Positions 1 through 50,990 are shown, counted from the first letter of the whole stretch. The stretch is DNA of 57,771 bases, filler included, from Sphacelaria rigidula (GCA_964200075.2; 7 parts of 7 records of this genome joined end to end with filler, not necessarily neighbours in it), one strand, 5' to 3'. Notes: a model not told the origin generated them from the letters alone. Made by a program: numbers and translations.

Positions 1-100
1 GATGACTATGGCAAGCATGATCATGAGTACACCCCCCCCCCCCATATCCCCTTGTGCGCTCACTCTTCCTCTCAATGTGCTAAAAATGCTCATTTTCTAC

Positions 101-2113
101 CTGAGGCATATCGACGCGAGTCTGGGCGCGGCGGTTGGGATTTTCCTCCAGGAAGTACTGCAGGTTGTTGTGGGAACAGTACTGCATCTGGATGTAAAGC
201 CACAAGTCGTACACTTCCCTCGTCCCTCTCCCGCCACCCCTTCTCCTCCCTCTCCCATGACCACCCCTGTCAGCCCAGCCTCCCGCCGCACCGCGCCCCC
301 ACCGCCGCCCTTGCTGCCTCCGTAAATCTCGCCGAAGAGCAGCGGCTGCGCGATTCGGGACCTCCTGCGCCCCTTCCCCGGCGTCGCCGATGCGCGACTC
401 TCTTCCCTGTAACGTCGTTGTAGCGTCTGAACCATCGGCGGGTACGCCCGTGGCGATGTTTTGCGGCCAGCTCTTACCGCGCGGTCGACGGCTGCTGTCG
501 CTGCCCGGAGAGTTTCGTGGGACGGGGCCGGCGGCACCAGTGCCGTCCAATACGGCCCTGACGGCCGCCGCATCTAGGTGGTCTACCTTGAGGGTGGTGG
601 TGTTGCCGGCGGATGCCTCGGCGGCGGCCGCGGCAGCCAGAGTAGTCCCGGCGTCGGTCGAGCGAGCGCGGAGGTGGCGTTGGGGGGGGTGGTTGCGGTA
701 TCCGTTGTTCGTACCGGCGATCTCTGCTGTCGATAGCGCGAGAGGACTCACCCGGTTCCAACTGCAACTGTCGTCATTGTCGTCAACTTGGTCTGGGGCA
801 TGGTCGTGATTGATCTCGCCGTTGCTCCGCATACTTCTCTCTTTCTCACCATCTTCATCAGCGGCGGCGCCGTGGCGGTCTTCATCATCCGCGTCCACCT
901 TCTCCCGTGTTTCATCGCCTTCTTCCTCACTACAATGCCTCGGGGACACACTGCCGCTCGACTGTTCCTCGCCGGAGTCTGCGTCCTGCGCAATATCATC
1001 GCATGCTGCTGAGCTCTCGCCATTGCTACTGATCTCGTTGCCGCGGCAGATGTCACCAGCTCTGGACTCACCTTCCCGAGGCGAAGGATCCGCGGTTATT
1101 GTGTCGTTCCGGATAGGACACGAGTCGACCACGTACGAGCTGGCTGGAGCGGTGGAACCGGACGGCCTGCGCTCACTGTCACCCTTGGTCCATTCCTCCT
1201 CGCCAATTTCCCATTTTCCGGCTCCACCCTCGCCGGCGCCACCTGCACCGTGGCCGTCAGTAGTACCGCCGACAACGGCGATCAATCCCTCGGCGTTCTC
1301 GAACTGTCCACGAGTATCCCCGTTTCCCTCTCCATCCCCGTCGCCTTCCCGATCGAAAACGAATCCGCCCATGCTGGCCTCCTCGTCGTCTTCCATTTCC
1401 TCACCCAGCTCTCCCTCCATATCTTCGTCATCATCCTCATCCCCCTCCTCCTCATCGAACTCCCCGAACCGACCATTACCTCGCCACCGTCGCCGACCGC
1501 GCCGCCGCCCTCCGCCTCCGCCGCCGCCGACACCCCCTCGATCGTCCATACTTCGGCTGTCAACAGACCACCCGTCAACGCTGAGCTCTTCGGAAAACTG
1601 CGAACTATCAACAAATCCCTGATGACGACCATCGTTCAGTAAAGCACGCGAGGGAGAGTTCCTCCAATGTTGCTGCCAACGTGGCTCCTCGTCCCCTCCC
1701 CTACCCCCGCCGCCACGGCCACTGGTGGCGCCCGCCACGGCATCACTTCGCCGCAAATCCCCAGCTGCGGATGAAGTGAACGCTGGATTGCGTGACCCGC
1801 ACACCACCTCGTGACAACTACCGCGGCAGGCGTCATCGTTTCGCGCGGCCGTATCTCCTTCGCCGTACGGGGAATCGCCGGCGTCGGCCCTTTGCGGGCG
1901 GCAGATAGCGGTATTGTCGTAGTGCTGGTGACGACTTGTTGCAGTGCTGGCTGTGCCCATGTTGAGGCGACCAGTGCGCGTTCCCGTCGTGCCCAATCCT
2001 CCGGCCGTAGAAGACTGTCCCCAGGCGGCCGAGGTGTTGGTGTCGGATAGCGATGGCGCCTTTTCGCTCCGGAGCAGCTGCTCGTCTTCCTCAGTGAACT
2101 TTTCCAGCCAGGC
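101..2113 (-). CDS. PERK-like eIF2-alpha kinase, exon 2 (long kinase insert and subdomain V); gene continues off the contig
   Basis: Acceptor tcatcgcag|GCC restores HPNIVRYYQ|AWLE, typical of eIF2-alpha kinases. Ends with LWLYIQMQYCSHNNLQYFL (subdomain V, cf. YLYIQMEYC) and donor CAG|gtagaa at 101/100. Length 2013 bp, phase 0/0. The catalytic HRD and DFG exons are not in the window. Confidence 0.85.
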
Positions 2114-2430
2114 CTGCGATGACAATCGGTTTGTGTAAATATCATACCTGGCGTATCAAGAGAGAAAAGAGAGTCTCCGAGCGGCATAACGCAAAGCGCA
2201 CGCCTACGTACTCTGTCTATAGACTGGACATTCAACAGAAGTAGGTTCGCCTTGAAGCCATCTACGAGAAATACGATATTCAGGGGGGAATCAACCACAA
2301 ACAACTCAATTTCATGTCAACCAGCGAGAACATTCTCATTTACAAAATCGCACGTGACACCTGCTATTGTATACACCACATCTGCTGTGCATAATAAAGC
2401 ACACACACAAAAATACAAACACACGCACAC

Positions 2431-5400
2431 CTGGTAATACCGCACGATGTTGGGGTGATCCAGGAGGGCCAGGATCTTCACCTCCCGGAGGACCTTAGCC
2501 AGCTGCTGTTGCCATCGCCTGTCAGATGACAACCTGATCTTTTTCACGGCGTAGTCATGCCCGTCCAGCCGGTTCCGACACTTGTACACCGCGCCAAAAC
2601 CGCCTCGTCCGAGCTTTGGCCCTTCCACAAACTCCGTACGGAGGCGTCGGTTGGTGACCAGAAGTGCATCCGGTGCATCCCTCCCATTTTCCACACCCAC
2701 AGAGTCAGCCCCCCCGCCGACCTCCCCGCTGCCCCCCACGCAACTACCACCGCCCAACAAAATCGCGCCATGTTCTTCCTCCTCCTCCTCCTCACGCGCC
2801 AAAATTGTGCGGGGGCTCCGACTCGTTCTTCGCTCTCGATGTTCACTACCACGATCTCGTTCGCTCCACCCGTCGGAATCGACGTCTGGCCTACCGGCAC
2901 CCCTGTCGCCGGAGTGGCCTCTTCGAGACGATGCAGCTGAATCTCGCCCTTGCAGTTGTCGCTGATGCCTCCGTCGTCGCCCGGATCCGCTAGAGTGCAC
3001 AGATCCTGAGCCGTGATCGCGTGTCGCCCGCGACGCCCCCGCTCCCTTGTCGGCCGTTCTGCTGCTCTCTCTGGAGAAGACGGGAGATGATGGAGATGAA
3101 GACGAAGACGAAGACGAAGACCGAGAGGACTCATCGGAAGAATCATCTACCGAACGACGCTCGTCAGACAAGCTTTCGGGGCTGTCGATTCCTGCAGCAC
3201 CTACAATTATGATTTCATCACCAGCAGAGTTGACGAGCGGCTTCCCTGCCGCTTCGCCTCGCGCGTTTTCGGCGGCGGCCGTCTTGTGCGAAGGAGAGCC
3301 AACGGGCGAAGCAGAGTCGACGGTTGACCGGCAGAGCTGCTCTGCCGCAGCGGCGATTGTGGCGCTGGCGCCTCCCGTCCCGTGGCTGTCGCCAGCGCCA
3401 GCACCAGCACCACCCTGGTCGGCTTCATCCTGCACGCCGCTGTGTTTCTCCGGGGAGCTGTTAGCTGAGACCGCACGCATGAGGTTGCCCTCGCCGCTCG
3501 CGTGCCCGAAGAGGGACTTCCACTGCCCCTTGCCGTCACGCCGATCTCGTGGAGTCGAGGGAGAGAGGGATTGGCCCAACACTGGCAGGGAGTGCACTCG
3601 ATGGATGCTCACCGCGGTGCTGCGCTGCACGTTCCGAAGCACTTCTGCTGGAGTCGGCCCCCCGCTTCGTGAAGTTTGCTCCTTGTTACTTCCGTTGGTC
3701 CATATCCAAGAGCGCGAGCCTGTGACCGTGGACGAAGCGCTGGCGCCGTGGTGCAGCGTGGGATGCTCGAGCAAGGGTGACTCGCGGCCGCTGGTCGATG
3801 AAGACCGCGAGGACGTAAACGGTAGATTGCTTCGGAGGGCGAGAACCCCGTTCACAGCTGCCGCCGGTGGAGTGGCGCTGTTGGTACGACTGAGCCTGCC
3901 GACTGTTATGCTCCCCTTGCGGGTGATGGTCGACATATTCGCCATAGCTTCTGCGCCGTACTTGTACGCCATGTACGCCACGACTGCCACAATCACAGAT
4001 ACCAACCCGACAACCCACCCTAAAAAGCGCCACGACACGTACAGTCCCTGGTGGTCTGGGTTGAACTCACTGGCCACCGAGCTCTTCCCCGCCTGCAGAT
4101 CCCTCTCCACGCGCTCTCCCAGCGCTTGTCGCCAGTCCCCCGAGGTCACGCTTGCTCCGCTCCTGCCGTTTACATTCCCGTGCCCGGCGTCCGGGTCTGG
4201 GGGCCGCGCGTGCGGAGGGAGCTTCGATACAGGTGGTTCAATGTGCGGAAGCGCTTCAGTGGCGGCCGCTCCCATATCCCCGCCTCCGCCACGTGAGCCC
4301 CTTCCCGCGGAGTCAACGAAAGATCGGCGACTGGCCATTCCGCCCACTGGATGAGGATACCGATCGTGCGCAACAATAGCAGAATCCTCCGCCGCGGCTT
4401 GGAGAGGGCTCTTTCTCAGGGATGATGAGACGAAAAAATGTCCGTTGAGGAACCCAACCTGCGCTTGCATTTGGCCTCCATGGCGGAGTCCCGGCTGCAG
4501 GAGCCCGGGCATCCTGGAGGTGCCCGGTCGCCTGTTCGTCGTCGAGGCTACGACAGCCTTTGTTGTCTCTTCTTCATGGAAAGCGGAAGAGAACGGGCAC
4601 GTATCATCGGTCAGCTCCCCTTCTGAGCTGAGGGATGTGCTCCTATCGTCAGGACTGTCGTTTCCGCTACCGCCCTCTTCATCGGAGATGACCGATGCAT
4701 CCTTCGAAGGAAGACCTGACGCGGGATCCCACGTCGACTGGTCCACCTCGAACAGGTCGTTCGCACCGCCCTCGTTTGTGAGCAATAGCAGCGGTTCTAC
4801 TTCTTCAGGCGCACGGGACCACTCCACCTCGCCGTCTGATAGCATGTCATCTACTGAAGCCTGAGTGACCAAGCCCGTGCCGCCGGGACCCACCAGAGTC
4901 GGTGACTGCAGTGGATGCTGCGGTCCTTTTAACAGCGACATTGGGGGCGGCATGATATCGACCCACTCCCGTCCGCGTATCCCATACAGGGAAACGGCGA
5001 GCGAGGGCATCTCTCGACGCCACAGGACGCTTCCGTCTATCGGGTCCATCGCTACAACCCACGCGTTTTCCTCGTACAGGAGATAAGGGAATCGATCGAC
5101 GTGCCTGGTGCCGAACTTTTCCCTCACAATATTCTGGCGCGGGCGCCGCCTACCGCCGCCGCTCCCACTCCCATCACCCCATTCCGTTCCGGAACTTGGT
5201 CCGGCACCCCCGTCATCCCAACGTTCTCCTTCGCGGGCAAACAAAGCATCGGTATCCCAGAACTCGCTGCTCTCGCCGTCCTCACCTGCCAGCATATCAT
5301 CAGGTGGGGGTAGCAACTTCATGAGCTCTTCACCTATTTCGTGGTCGCCGAACTGCGTACGGACGGCGCGTGAGTAGCCCTCGCGGCCGGCCGCGGCGAC

Positions 5401-6450
5401 TTTGGCGCGAGTGAGCGCAGACACACCTCCCTTGCCCTCGAGATCGAGTGCGCTAAAGTGCGCTACTGTGACGAACCAAAGCTCTTCCGAGGTAACCGTG
5501 TCTAGGGCACGGACAACGTACTCGTCGCGCTGGAGCAAGAGACGGCTCTGGGCTCGTTGCGGAGTATTGCTTCCCCAGTTCCACGGACTATCCCCTCGAG
5601 TCCAGTCGGTATGCTTGCCATCGCTATGACTGCCGCCGCTGTAGCTGCCGCTGTCGGCCGACTCCTTGAACATCGGACGAGTAGGCCCGCCGCCGCCGAC
5701 CCGCGTCGCCTCGCCGGTCTCCGTGTCCAAGGAAAATAGCTCGGTGGTCTTCTCACCAATCAGGAGGCCGCAGCTCTCATCTTTCACGATTCCGTCCGAG
5801 TCCGAGCTGACCGCTAGACAAGCCATCCTTGGCTCGAGAACGAGGTCGGGTGCCGACGACATCAGAACGCTGAGTCGGCCGTCAGTGTCAAGCGAGTATA
5901 TCACCCCGTCAAGCCCCGGCACAACAAAGCCTTCCCCCAACGCATTCCTACGCGTTCCACTACTACTCGATTCATCGCCACCCTCACTGCCGTGGTCGCT
6001 TCTATCTTGCCCGCCATTTTCATCTCCGCTGCCTTCCGCCGTCGTGGATACATCGATCGTTGTGCTCGAAGACACAAGGGGCCCACCCGAGTCTGCGAAC
6101 ACTCCCCGCACGTTGCCGGTCCAGGCGTCCAGGGTATGCACATGACCGTCTACAGTCACGGCGACTACAGCGTGGTCTTCACGTTCCATGTATTCACTTT
6201 TACTTTCACGCTCACGTGTAGACGCACCCCTCGCCCCTCCCGTGCCAGCTGCCGTCGCCGTCGCCCCCGCCGCCGCCACGGGGGCTGCCAACACTATCGC
6301 TGCCCACGATAAGAACAGCAACAGAGGGGTCGCCCTCGCTCGAGCTCGCCGGCAGACGACGGTTTGACGTGTGCTGGTATTATGCCCCTCTTCTCTTCGC
6401 GCTAGCGTGGCACCGGTAGCATGCTGCCGACGTCTTCTTCGCCAGGGCAT
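2431..6450 (-). CDS. PERK-like eIF2-alpha kinase, exon 1 (signal peptide, IRE1/PERK-type luminal domain, TM helix, kinase subdomains I-IV)
   Basis: ATG at 6450. Hydrophobic leader LLLFLSWAAIVLAAPVAAA. Luminal-domain-like motifs VTVDGHVHTLDAWTG, VPGLDGVIYSL, IGEKTTELFSLDTETG, LLLQRDEYVVRALD..EELWFVTVAHFS. TM segment WRFLGWVVGLVSVIVAVVAYMAY (~3964-4033). Kinase RLRTEFVEGPKLGRGGFGAVYKCRNRLDGHDYAVKKI...VLREVKILALLDHPNIVRYYQ. Donor CAG|gtgtgc at 2431/2430. Confidence 0.88.
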
Positions 6451-8000
6451 CCTGTCAGGAAGGTCGGGTCCAGCTCGCGCACGGCATGTCCGTACTGTTG
6501 GAATAATCGGGGCCGCACCAGTCCGAATCTAACTGCAGCAAACAGCGCGGGTTGTGGGAGCAAAACAGGATTGGGGAGATAGTTTTGCAGCCCGCAGGTT
6601 TTTTGGCAGTAGGTATGAAACAGAGCAGGATGCCGGCGGACGGAGCTGTTGTCGGAGGCAGGGCGGGGGTCTTGGCGGTGCACGGCTTGCTCTGCAATAC
6701 ACAACCGTAACCGTACAGAATTGGGAGGGAATATATGCTGCGTTTAGAAGGCTGCAGGCGGTACCGTCGTTACAAGGGTTGACTTGGTTGCCACTGCACT
6801 ATGAACTCAACGGTTTTGACATGAAAAACTAAACATGCGGGAAGGGGATCCCGAGTGGTGCTACCAAACAAGGGCGGCAACTTGCCTTCTCGGAGAGAAA
6901 AACATCCGGTCTTGAAACAATGAAAACTGCACTGACCAACCTGCCATTCCGACAGGTGCGGTACTGCACCGTGAGGGACGATATGGTAGCCGTGTACTAC
7001 ACTGTGTACAGAGCTTTAGTCTGTGTCGTAGTGTATGTAGTCTAATAGTGAAACACGGTAGCATACTGATTTCGTAGACAGCGTCCGAGCAAGTATTCAA
7101 CAAGACGAAGAAAGCAGCACATACCACGGCGAAAACAAGCGAAGGTCTCCGTATGAAGCTACCCTATGATAATCTTGTGTCGCATCTAATATTCTCACCT
7201 CTTATGGGGTATATGGTCGCCTCACTTCGCGTGGTCTTCCCTCCGTTTCGCTGCCCCCCACCCCAACGCACTTGGCAGCCAGCTCTCACGATAGTTCGAC
7301 ACGCGTTTGTAGGGCAAACACTACTAAACACTACTAAGCAGAACACGAACGAATAAGTATTTCTCACCGACCCCTACCCCCTTCTGGAACAAGATGCACA
7401 AGAATCAGTACTTCACACAGAGAAATGGCTGTGGCTCCCTCCTCCGTGTCCCCTGTCCCCACCTCCCACTCAGGGCAGCTATCTATAGCTTCGCGGCGCT
7501 GTATGGTCTAGCCAGAGACAGGGGTTTTCTCGTGTGATATTTTTTGTTCAACACAACAGGAAGCAGGAAGCCTTGTGAAACTTCGGGGAGATTGCGTGTC
7601 TAGTGTTCGAGGCCTGGGATTGGGTGAAATCTAGCCGAAAACTTGAAACTGGGTCATCATTCGTTGGCCACTTGCCTGGGGATTGAGTCTGGTAAGCGGG
7701 TTATGCTCATCCGGGTCTACCTTTTGATGGTGTTTTTCTTTCAGCGTCAGGACAGTACCGCATGCAGCTCACTACACCCGTTGGATAAACTCCAACAAAG
7801 AACTTATGATTTTTTTGCGTGGTTTCTCGGGGACCTTCAACTGCGACCGCGGGTCTGAATAGATAAGCCCATTCGATAGCGGGGGGCGCTTGGGGGAGTT
7901 TCCAATAGAAGCGCCAGATGAAAGCATCTACGAGCTGATTCATGCTTTTATCACCCAAAAAACACTCAGCGGCAAAACATCACGCCGTTTTAAGCAGTTC

Positions 8001-8130
8001 GACCGACTCTTATGAGAGCCGTTCAAGTTTCCTGTTCAAAACTGCCATTTTGGCCCTTATCCGTCGTTTTACGCCTGAAAAGACGGCTAGGCGGATGTGG
8101 ACGCCTTGGAATGACTTGCACTACTCATTA
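8001..8130 (+). mobile_element. Partial copy (one arm) of the GACC...GGTC foldback MITE seen complete at 25211-25590
   Basis: gaccgactcttatgagagccgttcaag...ggaatgacttgcactactca aligns with 25211-25340. Confidence 0.75.
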
Positions 8131-8168
8131 ACAGCCGATTTTCGAAAATGGGGTTGAAAAAATAAATG

Positions 8169-8420: not shown

Positions 8421-11400
8421 AAGCGCTCTTGTGACCGAGTGTAACAGCTTCACACGCGTGATCTGCACTTTTCGTTCCGCGCGACGAAACAAAATGAAAC
8501 AAAAAAGCTTGGCTCAATTGTTTTCGCCCGCGGATCGTTCATAGTTTGGAGCCAGCTGCTGCACACACCCGCACACCATGGATGTCGTGCACAGCATGCT
8601 GCCGACTGCAACACGCTGCTATGTCGTCGCTGGCTGCAGCCATTTCTTCTGCTCAGCCGGCGCTCGTGCTACCAACAAGCTCTTGCCAAGCGCTCTTGCT
8701 ACCGAGTGCAACGGCAGCACACGCGTGATCTGCACTTTTCGTTTCACGCGACGGAGCAAAATGAGAAGCGAAAAAGCTTGACTCGGTTTTTCTCTCCCGC
8801 GGATCGTTCACATTTTGCAACCAGTCACTGCACATACCCGCGCACCATGGATGTCGCGTACTAGCATGCTGCCGACTGCAGCACGCTGGTATGTTGTCGC
8901 TCGCTACAGCCATTTCTCCTGCTCGGCCGGCGCCGGTGCTACCAACCAACAAACTGTTGCCAAGCGCTCTCGTTACCGAGTGCAACAGAATGGAGCGCGT
9001 GATCTGCACTCTTCATTTCGCGGGACGAAACAAAATGGAAACAGAAAAAGCTTGACTCGGTTCTTCTCGTCCCCGGATCATTCACATTTTGCAGCCAGCC
9101 ACTGCGCACACCCGCACACCATGGATGTCGTGTACAGCATGCTGCCGACTGCAACACGCTGCTTTTTTGTCGCTCGCTACAGCCACTTCTTCCGCTTAGC
9201 CAGCGCCCGTGCCACCAACAAGTTGTTGTCTAGAGGTCTTGTTACCAAATGCAGCACACGCGTGATCTGCACTTTTCGTTTCGCGCGACGGAACAAAATG
9301 GAAACAGGAAAAGCCTGGCTCGGTTTTTCTCTCCCGCCGATGGTCCACATTTTGCAGCCAGCCACAGCACACACCCGCGCACCATGGATGTCGTGTACAG
9401 CATGCTGCCGACTGCAACGTGCTTTTACATTGTCGCTCGCTACAGCCACTCCTTCTGTCAGCCAGCGATCGTGCGACCAACAAGCTCTTGCAAAGCGCTC
9501 TTGTTACCAAGTGCAACAGCAGCACACGCGTGCTCTGCACTTTTCGTTTCGCGCGACGAAAACAAATGGAAACAGAGAAAGCTTGGCTCGGTTTTCCTCG
9601 CCCGCGGATCACTCATATTTCGCAGCCGTCGTGTACAACATGCTGCCGACTGCAACACGCTGCTATGTCGTCGCTCGCTACAGCCATTTCTTCCACTCAG
9701 CCAGCGCCCGTGCTACCAACGAGGTGTTGTCAATCGCTCTTGTTACCGATTGCGACAGCAGCACACGCGTGAGTTGCACTTTTCGTTTATCGCGATGAAA
9801 CGAAATCGAAACAGAAAAGCCTTTGCTCGGTTTTTGTCTTTTCGGATCGTCCACATTTTGCAGCCAGCCATTGCACACACCAGCGCACCACGGATGTCGT
9901 ATACAGCATGCTGCCGACTGCAACACGCTGCTATGATGTAACTGGCCTGGGCCACTTCCTCTGCTCAGCAAGCGCCCGTGCTACCAACGAGCTGCTGCCA
10001 AGCGCTCTTGTTACCGAGTGCGACAGCAGCACACGCATGATCTGCACTTTTCGTTTCGTGCGACAGAACAAAATGGAAACAGGAAAAGCTTGACTCGGTT
10101 TTGCTCGCCCGCGGATCGTTCACATTGAGCAGCCAACCACTGCACACACCCGCGCACCATAGATGTCGTGTACAGCATGCTGCCTACTGCAATACGCTGC
10201 TATGTCGTCGCTCGCTACAGCCATTTCTTCTGTCAGCCAGCGCTTGTGCTGCCAACAAGCTGTTGCCAAGCGCTTTTGTCGCCGAGTGCAATAGCAGCAC
10301 ACGCGAGATTCGAACTTTTCGTTCCGCGCGACGGAATAAAATGGGGATAGAAAAAGCTTGGCTCGGTTTTTCTCGTCCGCGGATCGTTCACATTTTGCCG
10401 CCGTCGTGTACAGCATGCTGCCGACTGCAACACGCCGCTATGTCGTCGCTCGCTACAGCCACGTCCTCTTTTCAGCCAGCGCCCGTGCTACCAACGAGCT
10501 AATGCCAGGCGCTTTTTTCACCAAGGGCAACAGCAGCACACGCGTGGTCTGCACTTCTTGTTTCGCGCGACGGAACGAAATTAAAACGGAAACGTCTTGA
10601 CTCGGTTTTTCTCGTCCGCGGATCGGCCACATTCTGCAGCCGTCGTGTACAGCATGCTGCCGACTGCAACACGCTGCTATTATGTCGTGGCTCGCTACAG
10701 CCACATCCTTTGCTCAGCCAGCACCCGTGCTACCAACGAGCTGTTGCACAGCGCTCTTGCTACCGAGTGCAACAGCAGCACACGCGTGATCTGCACTTTT
10801 TGTGTCGCGCGAGGAAACAAAATTGGTACAGAGAATGCTTGGCTCGGTTTTTCTCGCTTCGGATCGTTCACATTTTGCAGCCAGCCACTGCACACACCCG
10901 CGCACCATGGATGTCGCGTACAGCATGCTGCGGACTGCAACACGCTGCTATGCCGTCGCTTGCTACAACGATTTCTTCCGCTCAACCAGCGATCATGCTA
11001 CCAACGAGCTGTTGCAGAGCGCTCTTGCTACCGAGTGCAACAGCAGCACACGCGTGATCTGCACTTTTTGTTCCGCGCGACGGGACGAAATGGAAACAGA
11101 GAATGCTTGGCTCGGTTTTTCTCGCCCGCGGATCGTTCACATGTTGCAGCAAGCTACTACACACACCCGCGCGCCATGGATGTCGTGTACAGTATGCTGC
11201 CGACTGCAACACGCTGCTATGTCGTCGCTCGCTACAGCCACGTCCTCTGCTCAGCCAGCGCCCGTGCTACCAACGAGCTCTTGCCAAGCGCTGTTGTTAC
11301 CGAGTGCAACAGCAGCACACGCGTGATCTGCACTTTCCGTTTCGCGCGACGAAACAAAATGGAAACGGGAAAAGCTTGACTCGGTTTTTCTCGCCCGCGT

Positions 11401-13405
11401 ATCGTTCACATTTTGCAGCCAGCCACAGCACACACCCGCGCAGCATGGATGTCGTGTACAGCATGCTGCCGACTGCAACACGCTGCTATGTTGTCGCTCG
11501 CTACAGCGATTTCTTCTGTCAGCCAGCGCTTGTGCTACGAAGGAGCTGTTGCCAAGCGCTTTTGTCACCGAGTGCAGCAGCAGCACACGCGTGATCTGCA
11601 GTTTTTGTTTCGTGTGACGGAAAAAAATGGAATTAGAAAAAGCTTGGCTCGGTTTTTCTCGCCCGCGCATCGTTCACATTTTGCCGCCGTCGTGTACTAG
11701 CATGCTGCCGACTGCAACACGCTGCTCTGTCGTCGCTTGCTACAGCCACTTCCTCCGCTCAGCCAGCGCCCGTACCACCAACGAGCTGGTGCCAAGCGCT
11801 GTTGTTACCGAGTGCAACAGCAGCACACGCGCGGTCTGCACTTCTTGTTTCGCGCGACGGAGCAAAATGGAAACAGAAAAAGCTTGACTCGGGTTTTCTC
11901 GCCCGCGGATCGGCCACATTCTGCAGCCGTCGTGTACAGCATGCTGCCGACTGCAACATACTGCTATGTCGTCGCTCGCTACAGCCACATCCTTTGCTCA
12001 GACAACGCCCGTGCTACCAACGAGATGTTGCACAGCGCTCTTGCTACCGAGTGCAACAGCAGCACACGCGTGATCTGCACTTTTCGTTTCGCGCGACGGA
12101 ACAAAATTGAAGCAGAGAATGCTTGGCTCGGTTCTTCTCGCTTCGGATCATTCACATTTTGCAGCCAGCCACTGCACACACCCGCGCACCATGGATGTCG
12201 CGTACAGCATGCTGCGGACTGCAACACGCTGCTATGTCGTCGCTTGCTACAACGATTTCTTCCTCTCAGCCAGCGATCATGCTACCAACGAGCTGTTGCA
12301 GAGCGCTCTTGTTACCGAGTGCAACAGCAGCTCCCGCGCGATCTGCACTTTTTGTTCCGCGCGAAGAAACAAAATGGAAACAGAAGAAGCTTGGCTTGGT
12401 TTTTCTCGCCCGCGGATCGTTCACATTTTGCACCCAGCCAATGCACACACGCGCGCACCATGGATGTCGCGTACTAGCATGCTGCCGACCGCAACACGCT
12501 GCTATGTCGTCGCTCGCTACAGCCACGTCCTCTGCTCAGCCAGCGCCCGTGCTATCAACGAGCTGTTGTCGAGCGCTCTTGTCACCGAGTGCAACGGCAG
12601 CACACGCGTGATCTGTACTTTTCGTTTCACGCGACGGAACAAAATGGAAACACAAAAAGCTTGGCTCAGGTTTTCTCGCCCGCGGATCGTCCACATTTTG
12701 CAGCCAGCCACTGCACACACCCGCGCAGCATGGATGCCGTGTACAGCATGCTGCCGACTGCAACACGCTGCTATGCCGTCGCTTGCTACAGCCATTTCTT
12801 CCGCTCAACCAGCGCCCGTGCTACCAACAAGCTCTTGCCAAGCGCTCTTGTTACCGAGTGCATCAGCAGCACGCGCGTGATCTGCACTTTTCGTTTCGCG
12901 CGACGAAACAAAATGGAAACACAAAAAGCTTGGCTCGATTTTTCTCGCCCGCGTATCGTTCACATTTTGCAGCCAGCCACTGCACACACCCGCGCACCAT
13001 GGATGTCGTGTACAGCATGCCGCCGACTGCAACACGCTGCTATGTCGTCGCTTGCTACAGCCGCTTCCCCTCCTCACCCAGCGCCCGTACTATCAACAAG
13101 CCCTTGCCAAGCGCTCTTGTTACCGAATGCAGCACACGCGTGATCTACACTTTCCGTTTCGCGCGACGAAACAAAATGGAAACAGAAAAAGCTTGGCTCG
13201 GTTTTTCTCGCCCGCGGATCGTTCACATTTTGCAGCCAGCCATTGCACACACCCGCGCAGCATGGATGTCGTGTACAGCATGCTGCCGACTGCAACACGC
13301 TGCTATGTCGTCGCTCGCCTGGGCCGCTTCCGCTGCTCAGCCAGCGCCCGTGCTACGAAGAAGCTGTTGCCAAGCGCTGTTGTTACCGAGTGCAGCAGCA
13401 GCACA
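8421..13405. repeat. Satellite array, ~19 head-to-tail monomers of ~268 bp with ~240-bp deletion variants
   Basis: Marker (a)agcgctcttgttaccgagtgc recurs at about 8421, 8688, 8962, 9231, 9493, 9733, 10000, 10268, 10508, 10750, 11017, 11287, 11553, 11794, 12033, 12301, 12571, 12840, 13109, 13372. Short units lack cagccactgcacacacccgcgcaccatgga. Confidence 0.96.
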
Positions 13406-40373: not shown

Positions 40374-42617
40374 CTGTTGTCGTTAAGATAAACGCGACGG
40401 GGGAAAACATGGAGAAGGAGCGGAGAGTTGAGCAAAAGCAAAAAAACAACAAAAATAGTCAGGAAGCCTTACAACGGGTCAGCGTATCGCACAGTCCAAG
40501 TCCGAGCTTTGATTGGGGGGGGCGTCCACATAATCTGCACAATCTGGAGTATCTCTTATTTTACACAGGTGAGTCAACATCCCTGTCGTACCGATCTCTG
40601 CAGTGCCGAGTAGACAACGTTTGGAGGGTTCCTGGAAATTTCTGTTTCCAGTAGTTACGGACCGCGACCGAATGCTCTTGTCGGTATCTTTCAAACGTAC
40701 ACAGTTCTCGTAAACATTCCATTGTTTTCCCATCATGACTCATTGTCGCACATACGATAGTTGGTCTGTAACGAATCCTGTTGCAGCCGTCAAAATACGC
40801 ATATCGGGGGTACGGGAAAGAACGCAACAACCCCCTGAAGAAAACATGAAATGAGATGAAAAAATGAAAACAAGCATGGAGGACACAAGACATGGTAAAC
40901 GAGGAAAAATATTAAAGACGGGAAAAAAAACGAACAAACCGACGACAAGAACGGAAGACGAGAAGAGGAGAGGCGCTGGGCGAAGGGCTACTAGCGGCGT
41001 CGAGAAAAATAGAGACAGCCCTCGGGCTGGAAGTCGGATGGGTAAACCGTACGAGATGCCGCGACTGAGCCATCCGGGGGTCACATTACTATATGAGCAG
41101 GAACTGCTACCGACCAGCTGCGGGAGAGCGGGATACCATCACCAACACGGTTTAGCCACACAAGGAGAAAAAGAGATCAAATGTAGCAGAAAAAAAAATG
41201 GAAAAAAGAAAGGGGGGGGGCGGGGGGGTACTAATTTNNNNNNNNNNNNNNNNNNNNNNNNNNNNNNNNNNNNNNNNNNNNTTAATTAATTAANNNNNNN
41301 NNNNNNNNNNNNNNNNNNNNNNNNNNNNNNNNNNNNNTAGTTTCCGTCAGCGCTGTAAGCTCACAGAGTCGATAAAATGCGCTGAAAAAGTATCTACGCG
41401 ATCGAGGGGCATTAGGCCGACGAAAAAGTCATCGGGCACCATCGCTGAAAGTGTGGAGAAAGTACTGTTGTTTTGGGCTCGAACCTCATTTCATTGATGA
41501 ACCTCATTTTATAGAATTCTCTGTTACATGGTAAAATGTACGCTCCTTCCCGGTTTTTCCCGGCCCACCCGATGTTAGTGAAAATTACTACGTTTTAGTA
41601 TAGGATTGGGACCCGAAAAACACTTGGGAAAAACTCGGGATACTGAGTGCAAGTAATACCATAAAACCAAGCCGCGACCACGCTGCACTTAGAAACCTGG
41701 GGAGGCTTATCTGGGCAAGGGATAGGGCCCCCACACGATCTATGCACTGATATCACACTCGAGAACAATCCTTGCGCTGGTTGTTCGGGTCTGGTCGATA
41801 ATTTTCGCCTCGCCGTGATTGGGCAGGTCGCTCGAGGACTTATTTTTAACTATTTCACTAACATAAGTGGGGGTCCGGTCCCAAAGGGTCAACAGCCGAC
41901 TGTCGAAATTGTGGATGGAGCTTTCACTGAGGATGAGAACCCAAAGGATTGAAATCTTCGTATCCACACCAAGTCTTCGAAATATGGTTCCATTCCTTCA
42001 CCTACTTGTAGCTATCGACAACTACTACACGCCCTACAATTTTTTATTTCGATACCCGAAATGTGGCTTGGGGTCCTGGATGAGAAGCAATTCAGGGGAA
42101 GTCAGGTGATCCGATCGGATCGCCGAATTCCCCTGAAGTTTGTTGTTCACCTAGGACCCCAACATTTCGATTATTGACCAGTTATTACTAGGCGTTACTG
42201 TATGCGCACAGATCGTGGCAACTCTTTAGTGCGTCTGAAGTTCAGAGTTTGGAGATGAGACTCTTCAGCGCCACATTTTGTGTCGTGCTCGGCGTGAGGT
42301 ATCATGCCGTTTCGCTGCCGTAGTCAAGCCCAATCTTGCGCCGAGCAAATTTGACAGCTGCGAAGTGTTTCAAACCTTTCAATGGTGCTCAGGGATATGG
42401 TAGGGTATAGAGTAGGGCAAGGTAGGGTGAGTGAAAGGGGTACTCTCGTACGCAGCGCAGTTGAGCACGGTTTATTCGTGATGCTACAGGTATTCATTAT
42501 CTCACTAGTTTCAGCAGTCGACACCATGTTTACCCGGAAGAATTGGGTACCACTAAACGAGGGACGTTTATAAGTTTCCCCCACGACAAGCTGGGAATTG
42601 AAAACCGCCCGAGGCCT

Positions 42618-42827
42618 GAGGTACCTCAGGGCACGAACCCAGTCATGAGCACATTTGCACCTCAAGCTCATAGTCAATATCTATTCGCAAGAAAAGAAAA
42701 GAAACAGCGAGATTTGAGACCGGAGGTACCTCAGGGCACGAACCCAGTCATGAGCACATTTGCACCTCAAGCTCACAGTCAATATCTATTCGCAAGAAAA
42801 GAAAAGAAACAGCGAGATTTGAGACCG
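42618..42827. repeat. Recent tandem duplication, 2 x 105 bp
   Basis: gaggtacctcagggcacgaacc...gagatttgagaccg at 42618 and 42723, with one visible mismatch. Confidence 0.92.
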
Positions 42828-44277
42828 GGCCTGAATCCCTTAAAAAAATGAAACTTCGGCATCACTCCTCGCTGTAACCCATGACTGACACGGTTCAAGC
42901 CCTGAAGCATGGGGAACAAGTGCTTTCAAATGACCGCCGCCGCACGCGTCCGTGACATGACATGTACATCATGTTCCTGACTCGGTTTCAAGATGTCCGT
43001 ATGATATTTACTCGTGCCCGACTTCGAGAAAGGGTCAACGTGTAACGTCAGATTCATTGCATCTTGTTCACCGTCTGATTCAAGGGTGGTGACATGAGAT
43101 TCGTGCTCGCTTCAAACACCGTCGTGAGAGATTGCCTTCCTCGTGAAAAATCCTTCATTAAGAACGTAACCAGATACGAAAAATGATCACCTCATGAGTC
43201 CGGCAAGCATGTCCCACGATTGACGACGACAACAACAATCTGGAGAAAAAACAAGTATTGGACAACACGGATGCCTGAGTGACTTCCGCGGAACTGCACC
43301 GACAGCACCGGATACGCCCACATCATGGCAAGGTTGGTCTATCATATTTTATGCACTACGCAAAAAAAACGTACTGGCACTCTGCGCTATTCCCCGCACC
43401 GCCAACCTGAAAGGAACAGAACGTTTAATACGGGAGATGAAAGGTGGCATGAATCACACCCGCAAACGGGTATCCCAACACACGACACCTGCGCAACGAA
43501 ACAAATCACAGATTACCATTCTATCCCCGGCGCGCACCCGGCGGTGGAGAAGGGGGATGAGGGGTTCCAGTACTGTAAACGCTATGACAGGAGCAACACT
43601 TTCGACAAATTTACAAAACCAGGTAACCTATGATGGACGCACGTCGGATTGGCGCCACCATCAAACACCTTACACTACAGCGCTCAAGGGTAATTAACAA
43701 GTACAGGAATTCCCCCCGACCGCCCCCCCGCCGCCCTCCCCCCTCCTCCTCCACGCACTGGACCCCCGGGCCTGACCTTTGCACTTGTTTCCAAGGGATG
43801 AATCACCGACTGCCTCACGTTCGAGGAAGGGCCAGGCAACGGACAAACACTGCGAACACGACAGCTGCTCTTGATTCGTGCGCGCCTCGCATACTGTACA
43901 ACGGCCAAACAGATTCAAAAATAACCAACTACAAAACAACGGCCCGCCGTTTCTTCAAGGCGACAGCCCCCTCACTCTACAACGCGGGAACTTCAGCTTG
44001 TCAACATCGAAAAAAAATGAAAACCCAACCGAATGTTCCTCCAGCAAAACAACTCCCTAGGGCTATGGCACGATCGAACGAAAAAAAACGAAAAGAAAAA
44101 GGGGCAAAGATTACAAAGAAAAAATACTAGTCTTGTGGCCGCGTACGTCAGCAGCAAATAAAAAAAGTCACAAGCCTCTGAACGAGAATAAAGCAAGACA
44201 AACAAGAGAAACTTGCCATACCCCACAACTGAGCTGCGCACCACTGCTCATCTATCCGACACGTGAGGATAAACTTA

Positions 44278-50834: not shown

Positions 50835-50990
50835 TTCTTGAAAAGTTCTGGTTGGTTCTTGAAAAGTTCTACTTGTTTTTTGAGAAGTTATGATTGTTTT
50901 TTCAAAAGTTATGATTGTTTTTCGAGAAGTTATGATTGGTTCTTGAAAAGTTCTGGTTGGTTCTTGAAAAGTTCAGATTGGTTCTGAAAA
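50835..50990. repeat. 21-bp minisatellite (TTCTTGAAAAGTTCTGGTTGG-like, ~7 units) inside an interspersed element also seen at ~34236-34368
   Basis: Visible 21-nt period. Flanks gggtca(c/t)gttt(c/t)g(g/a)gcag and tgtcac(g/a)gaa..ct.atgcc.aatct.gaat.gcc are shared with 34236-34368. Confidence 0.82.

Follow-up and report, generated by a model that had tools for sequence, protein, structure and literature searches.

Does a brown alga possess a receptor of the PERK (EIF2AK3) type, and if so, is it an old inheritance or a separate invention? PERK is commonly presented as a component that animals added to the unfolded protein response. The first-pass annotation of a stretch of DNA from Sphacelaria rigidula (57,771 nucleotides; hereafter the window) proposed a PERK-type architecture of luminal sensor, transmembrane (TM) helix and eIF2-alpha kinase, either ancient or built by independent domain fusion. 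The window strings together unrelated contigs with N spacers, drawn from an assembly of 244 Mb in 27,214 contigs. Bases 1–8168 are one contig, and the PERK-like gene lies on its minus strand, reads from 6450 to 101 and is spliced; all gene features below are on this strand. The motifs quoted in the annotation all occur there, comprising the luminal motifs TVDGHVHTLDAWTG, VPGLDGVIY, GEKTTELFSLDTETG and LQRDEYVVRALDTVTSEELW and the kinase motifs GGFGAV, NRLDGHDYAVKKI, HPNIVRYYQ/AWLE and LYIQMQYC.

The gene model combines open frames with contigs assembled from sequencing runs. The runs are not recorded as RNA (four of eight were guessed to be RNA); we read those whose contigs skip GT-AG introns as spliced RNA, since splicing leaves such gaps. 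Contigs of three of four runs, two of the three resembling one data set filed twice, exactly skip a 317-nt GT-AG intron (2114–2430) between coding exon 1 (2431–6450; residues 1–1340) and coding exon 2. Neither frame (1,340 and 671 codons) is interrupted, and the spliced contigs cover the gene with zero letter differences. Coding exon 2 opens with AWLE and a low-complexity kinase insert of ~630 residues (200–2113) and reaches kinase subdomain V (LYIQMQYC) and the start of the C-lobe (101–199), placed by alignment with orthologues. A GT donor then begins the next intron (1–100), in which the contig ends. The contig gives out at base 1 before the gene ends, leaving the catalytic C-lobe outside the window; contigs of three runs exit at position 99 and carry ~960 further transcript-like bases. 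The fourth run looks genomic and yields one unspliced 8,059-base contig spanning the gene. At the 5′ end, contigs of three of four runs join pieces of a non-coding first exon (7199–7533) to 6691, skipping a 507-nt GT-AG intron in the leader (6692–7198); one run uses an alternative acceptor near 6533. The 576-nt spliced leader holds a single upstream ATG, which opens a 10-codon reading frame (6455–6487) that stops four bases ahead of the main ATG and could place translation of the kinase itself under the influence of eIF2-alpha phosphorylation. Elsewhere in the window, a different contig carries a satellite-like array (8421–13405) of alternating 239- and 269-base units that are 80–86% alike, and other contigs hold tandem repeats with a 105-base unit (42611–42828; 2.1 copies) and a 21-base unit (50835–50990; 7.5 copies).

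Hydropathy analysis of the encoded protein reveals two hydrophobic segments only, at residues 43–68 (peak 2.3) and 809–827 (peak 2.4). The first follows a long basic n-region of 42 residues and is presumed, from its hydropathy, to be a signal peptide with its core at residues 43–61 (6268–6324; Kyte-Doolittle 2.3); a peak at residues 49–58 is present in four of 14 other brown-algal-type sequences (P0004, P0005, P0006 and P0030). The second is the lone TM helix that the annotation had placed between the luminal domain and the kinase (3970–4026). It is preceded by a G-L-x-x-x-W motif conserved in the alignment and followed by a cytosolic Ser/Gly-rich linker of ~430 residues (2656–3963). An internal hydrophobic peak above 1.7 recurs in 37 of the 43 sequences matched in a search with the C-lobe, the other six, all from oomycetes, falling below this threshold.

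The region between the two segments contains a luminal domain of the IRE1/PERK fold with long low-complexity loops (approximately residues 93–676; 4423–6174). A profile built from 10 sequences, all of them from stramenopiles, was compared to solved structures. Four PERK luminal entries lead at 66–72 bits (best E 6e-19), the best of them spanning positions 3–284 of the 287-position profile, and are followed by IRE1alpha at 44 bits (E 2e-10), IRE1beta at 33 and yeast Ire1 at 22. An AlphaFold2 model gave a concordant result: the listed Foldseek matches with E <0.001 (14, out of 15 counted) are all PERK or IRE1 luminal domains, ranks 1–5 are PERK, and among the matches listed the first other fold appears only at E 0.11. 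By Z score, the top structural match of the model is yeast Ire1. Luminal identity to PERK in the structural alignments is low (10–24%). Profile and structure thus agree with the proposal that the N-terminus resembles PERK/IRE1 luminal domains. In the ESM Atlas the luminal part falls into PQQ/IRE-like clusters (0.89–0.93), which we treat as a lead only. We rejected identity with PQQ/BamB propellers, whose scores are far below those of PERK and IRE1; PQQ-like matches are expected for this fold, according to the accessible text of PMC3797127. The luminal sequences of an IRE1-named cluster (P0190) score 113 bits on the same stramenopile profile, a value obtained in a different database from that of the lower-scoring animal PERK chains.

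The kinase N-lobe (2431–2652; Pfam Pkinase E 6e-14) features the Gly loop, the catalytic Lys, the alphaC Glu and HPNIVRYY. Compared to the PDB, this N-lobe alone matches HRI first, then PERK and GCN2, and a whole-protein profile of 29 orthologues places the PERK kinase ahead of HRI, GCN2 and PKR. The top 19 PDB sequences are eIF2-alpha kinases, and IRE1 is absent from the 45 PDB sequences over the E 1e-30 mark, so an IRE1-type kinase is not supported. The domain therefore belongs to the eIF2-alpha kinases, as first annotated, with PERK as the best match of the family and the ~630-residue insert located between subdomains IV and V. In a tree from a quick search over 29 chosen orthologue sequences, the partial Sphacelaria kinase and two paralogues, groups emerge for brown algae (98), oomycetes (100) and eustigmatophytes (100); the gene falls with Ectocarpus, Cladosiphon and Nemacystus (SH-aLRT 98), and Chrysoparadoxa is their sister (95). 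Because the paralogues and a protein from Fabomonas, discussed below, form long branches, the tree has no usable root and leaves Fabomonas unplaced. The genome also encodes eIF2-alpha (G000:C372; L101:809-4367, minus strand) with an intact Ser51 loop, ELSRRRIRS. Two other kinases of the family have separate genes: an HRI-like kinase assigned by motifs (G000:C4489; L105:500-4800, plus strand) and a GCN2-like kinase represented by two N-lobe exons (G000:C10584; L103:2377-5860, plus strand). The HRI-like kinase likewise has a very long insert, as well as a second insert in its C-lobe.

Recovery of the 3′ exons, which the first-pass annotation had called for, succeeded in part. Contig G000:C17341 contains a 27-codon terminal exon behind an AG acceptor that closely resembles the ends of the Cladosiphon and Nemacystus proteins; it probably is the end of the PERK-like gene, which would make the protein ~2,350 residues long. 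The exons carrying HRD and DFG were not recovered: when the assembly was searched three times with C-lobes and tails of orthologues, no orthologous exon came up, and the best match was the paralogue on C4489. In the brown-algal orthologue P0014, the HRD/DFG C-lobe is intact.

Full-length orthologues continue for ~90 residues past the kinase with a beta-alpha-beta-beta-alpha-beta order. The AlphaFold2 model of residues 1083–1158 of a diatom orthologue (P0029) has an ACT/ferredoxin-like topology at a pLDDT of ~80–90. Pfam ACT matches are weak and under the cut-off (ACT_4 at E 0.031 in one of 29 orthologues; in a second set, ACT_4 at E 0.031–0.17 in three of 14 sequences and ACT at E 0.2 in one), and 'ACT-like' is therefore the label that we use. 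A profile of this tail scores all 43 C-lobe search matches, from brown algae to oomycetes, at 55–98 bits, 18 of them having helped to build it. It also scores 36 of the 39 sequences that, among the best 150 library matches, reach 150 residues past the APE-like motif, five of the 36 being in its training set. The ESM Atlas returned no usable match for the tail. One apparently complete JGI protein (P0182) has the luminal domain, TM helix and eIF2-alpha kinase and ends in a short tail without an ACT-like domain. The expected absence of a KEN RNase held for the full-length orthologues by both Pfam and motif scan, the C-terminus being this small alpha/beta fold instead: PF06479 is not one of the 25 families listed, out of 31, for 29 orthologues, and a KEN-like motif was found in none of the 134 luminal-domain matches among the best 150. 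As for IRE1 itself, insensitive searches of the genome gave neither a KEN Pfam match (the controls were silent too) nor a second luminal domain. RWD, pseudokinase and HisRS-like domains are likewise missing among the Pfam families listed for the orthologues.

How widely is this receptor distributed? A search with the luminal region returned 20 proteins, itself included. Fifteen brown-algal-type sequences, including Ectocarpus fasciculatus, Discosporangium and Scytosiphon, share 49–65% luminal identity over at least 70% of the region, and four diatom-type sequences share 23–35%. These identities and the kinase tree identify the gene as brown-algal rather than animal, in line with the annotation. 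The C-lobe search added Chrysoparadoxa, Nannochloropsis and many oomycetes to the brown algae. In a library of 1.84 billion representatives, 134 of the best 150 matches have the luminal domain, the remaining 16 being repeat propellers, and 92 of the 134 also have the eIF2-alpha-kinase N-lobe motif. Thirty look-ups of names for matches returned labels of pelagophytes, Parmales, xanthophytes, diatoms, brown algae and oomycetes, together with one luminal fragment from the IRE1-named cluster and a single protein from outside the stramenopiles, that of Fabomonas tropica; none of these names was apicomplexan. Since the library search started from stramenopile sequences and was counted in its best 150, it says little on other lineages. 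A metagenome scan for orthologous loci yielded 79 generic-kinase loci, none with the L-Y/F-I-Q-M motif. The luminal–TM–kinase build thus recurs in brown algae, eustigmatophytes, diatoms, oomycetes and one Fabomonas record, and vertical inheritance across ochrophytes and oomycetes is the best explanation. In the gene model of P0031 (Nemacystus decipiens), IGPS and PRAI domains of tryptophan biosynthesis precede the kinase; this model probably merges two adjacent genes.

The Fabomonas protein (P0203, EukProt), known from one transcriptome record of this ancyromonad, has the same order of luminal domain, TM helix, eIF2-alpha kinase and ACT-like domain. Its luminal part finds PERK as the best natural match (E 8e-15), ahead of IRE1 (3e-12), with designed propellers scoring higher. 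Its luminal identity to its best matches in the analysed set is ~25–32%, too low for a close copy of any stramenopile protein in the sample. The kinase is ambiguous, with a tie between GCN2 and PERK; its catalytic loop reads HRDLNP. The tail aligns collinearly with the stramenopile tail and gives faint ACT matches; it scores 7.2 bits, and the highest value from 500 shuffles, 460 of which received a score, is 4.6.

The PERK-like architecture is thus real, and wider than the first-pass annotation saw. From its domains, we consider it likely that the protein, at ~2,350 residues, is an eIF2-alpha kinase anchored in the ER membrane with type I topology and that its function is PERK-like. By analogy with IRE1 and PERK as outlined in the accessible part of PMC3634511, BiP release or direct binding of unfolded proteins would lead to luminal oligomerisation. 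The cytosolic kinases would then pair and autophosphorylate an activation-loop Thr, and the active kinase would phosphorylate eIF2-alpha, lowering translation initiation. More tentatively, the ACT-like tail would most plausibly add a cytosolic allosteric input that tunes the kinase, such as an amino acid, another small ligand, or a contact with a protein or the ribosome. ACT domains often bind amino acids. This, together with the presence of the tail in all 43 C-lobe matches (those 18 in the profile included) and its modelled topology, would also fit a receptor with a different signal, in which the main trigger is cytosolic amino acid status and the luminal domain would mainly help the receptor to dimerise, or would sense membrane lipid state or plastid-protein traffic through the chloroplast ER. 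We regard this as improbable. Conservation of the luminal core extends to its individual strands, P0182 lacks the tail, a GCN2-like kinase is already there for amino acid sensing, and oomycetes carry the protein yet have no plastids. Far less probable still is a contaminant, an animal-derived transfer, a mis-assembly or a dead gene: the assembly is fragmented and has not yielded the C-lobe exons, but a single genomic contig spans the gene, spliced contigs match it letter for letter, both long frames are intact, 15 brown-algal-type orthologues share 49–65% luminal identity with it and the kinase tree follows species groups.

Where the receptor came from is a closer call. The evidence leans, without deciding, towards an ancient PERK orthologue older than animals, because both halves rank PERK first and because the four-domain order is common to the stramenopile and ancyromonad proteins. 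This argument rests on similarity ranks, which are sensitive to evolutionary rate; the kinase tree comprises only orthologues of this gene and two paralogues. The main competitor, which would alter the origin and not the function and which we find the less probable of the two, is independent fusion, in which an IRE1 luminal domain and TM helix joined an HRI- or GCN2-type kinase in stramenopiles and did so again in ancyromonads. It would account for yeast Ire1 being the top structural match by Z, for the preference of the Sphacelaria N-lobe for HRI, for the GCN2/PERK tie in Fabomonas and for the 113 bits of the IRE1-named P0190, above animal PERK chains in another database; the ACT-like tail itself shows that domains have been shuffled in this PERK-like family. 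Fusion of IRE1 with HRI predicts, however, something other than what is seen when each half is separately compared to solved structures, namely PERK in first place, and the collinear tail of Fabomonas would require convergence on four domains. Should orthology hold, a bolder scenario can be offered tentatively. PERK would predate the split of animals and stramenopiles, perhaps reaching back to the last eukaryotic common ancestor, as a four-domain receptor (luminal, TM, eIF2-alpha kinase and ACT) that joined ER folding load to a cytosolic metabolite signal; animals would have lost the ACT domain, and plants and fungi the gene.

Comparison with known systems delimits the family. Like animal PERK, the algal protein combines a luminal domain of the IRE1 fold with a single TM helix and an eIF2-alpha kinase that is interrupted by an insert between subdomains IV and V; among solved structures, PERK is the best match for its luminal and its kinase domain alike. 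It is, however, about twice as long as animal PERK, with its ~630-residue insert and ~430-residue linker, and the orthologues, together with the matching last exon on C17341, carry the C-terminal ACT-like domain. To our knowledge, animal PERK has no folded, ACT-like domain after the kinase, and the conserved tail thus points to a regulatory input missing from it. Unlike yeast Ire1 and human IRE1alpha/beta, the protein has an eIF2-alpha-family kinase, and its full-length orthologues have no KEN RNase. GCN2 and HRI are of the same kinase family but soluble, and both have their own homologues in the genome; in contrast to GCN2, the orthologues show no RWD, pseudokinase or HisRS-like domain among their listed Pfam families and begin with a luminal fold.

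By description, TgIF2K-A of apicomplexans and kinases of anaerobic fungi are likewise membrane-bound eIF2-alpha kinases outside animals. The accessible text of PMC10512342 describes TgIF2K-A as responsive to ER stress, reports that the fungal PERK-like kinases match PERK in the catalytic domain only, with no luminal domain or signal peptide, and credits the PERK archetype to Hernandez and Jagus 2016. In the portions available, PMC5025754 calls PERK conserved in protists with apicomplexan examples, PMC5583660 notes that protozoa control translation in a PERK-like way, PMC5851622 traces EIF2AK3 back only as far as nematodes and flatworms and contains no match to four stramenopile terms, and PMC3478156 offers a mention in its reference list only. 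For Phytophthora infestans, PMC3019232 gives a count of five PEK/GCN2 kinases and, in its available text, assigns TM domains to TKL kinases only, so the receptor build went unrecognised in that kinome. As names, the proteins are already on record: NCBI labels the Nannochloropsis orthologue EIF2AK3, and 'PEK' labels occur too. Full-text searches, with subscription papers, supplements, Hernandez and Jagus 2016 and Hollien 2013 set aside, turned up no account of a stramenopile PERK that carries either a luminal domain or an ACT tail.

These findings describe a PERK-type receptor family with an added ACT-like domain across ochrophytes and oomycetes, possibly of very early eukaryotic origin. If this is true PERK in stramenopiles and an ancyromonad alike, its origin would be far earlier than animals, and its absence from plants and fungi would be loss. 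The family includes genetically tractable algae, among them Phaeodactylum, Nannochloropsis and Ectocarpus, in which ER load bears on plastid protein import and lipid production.
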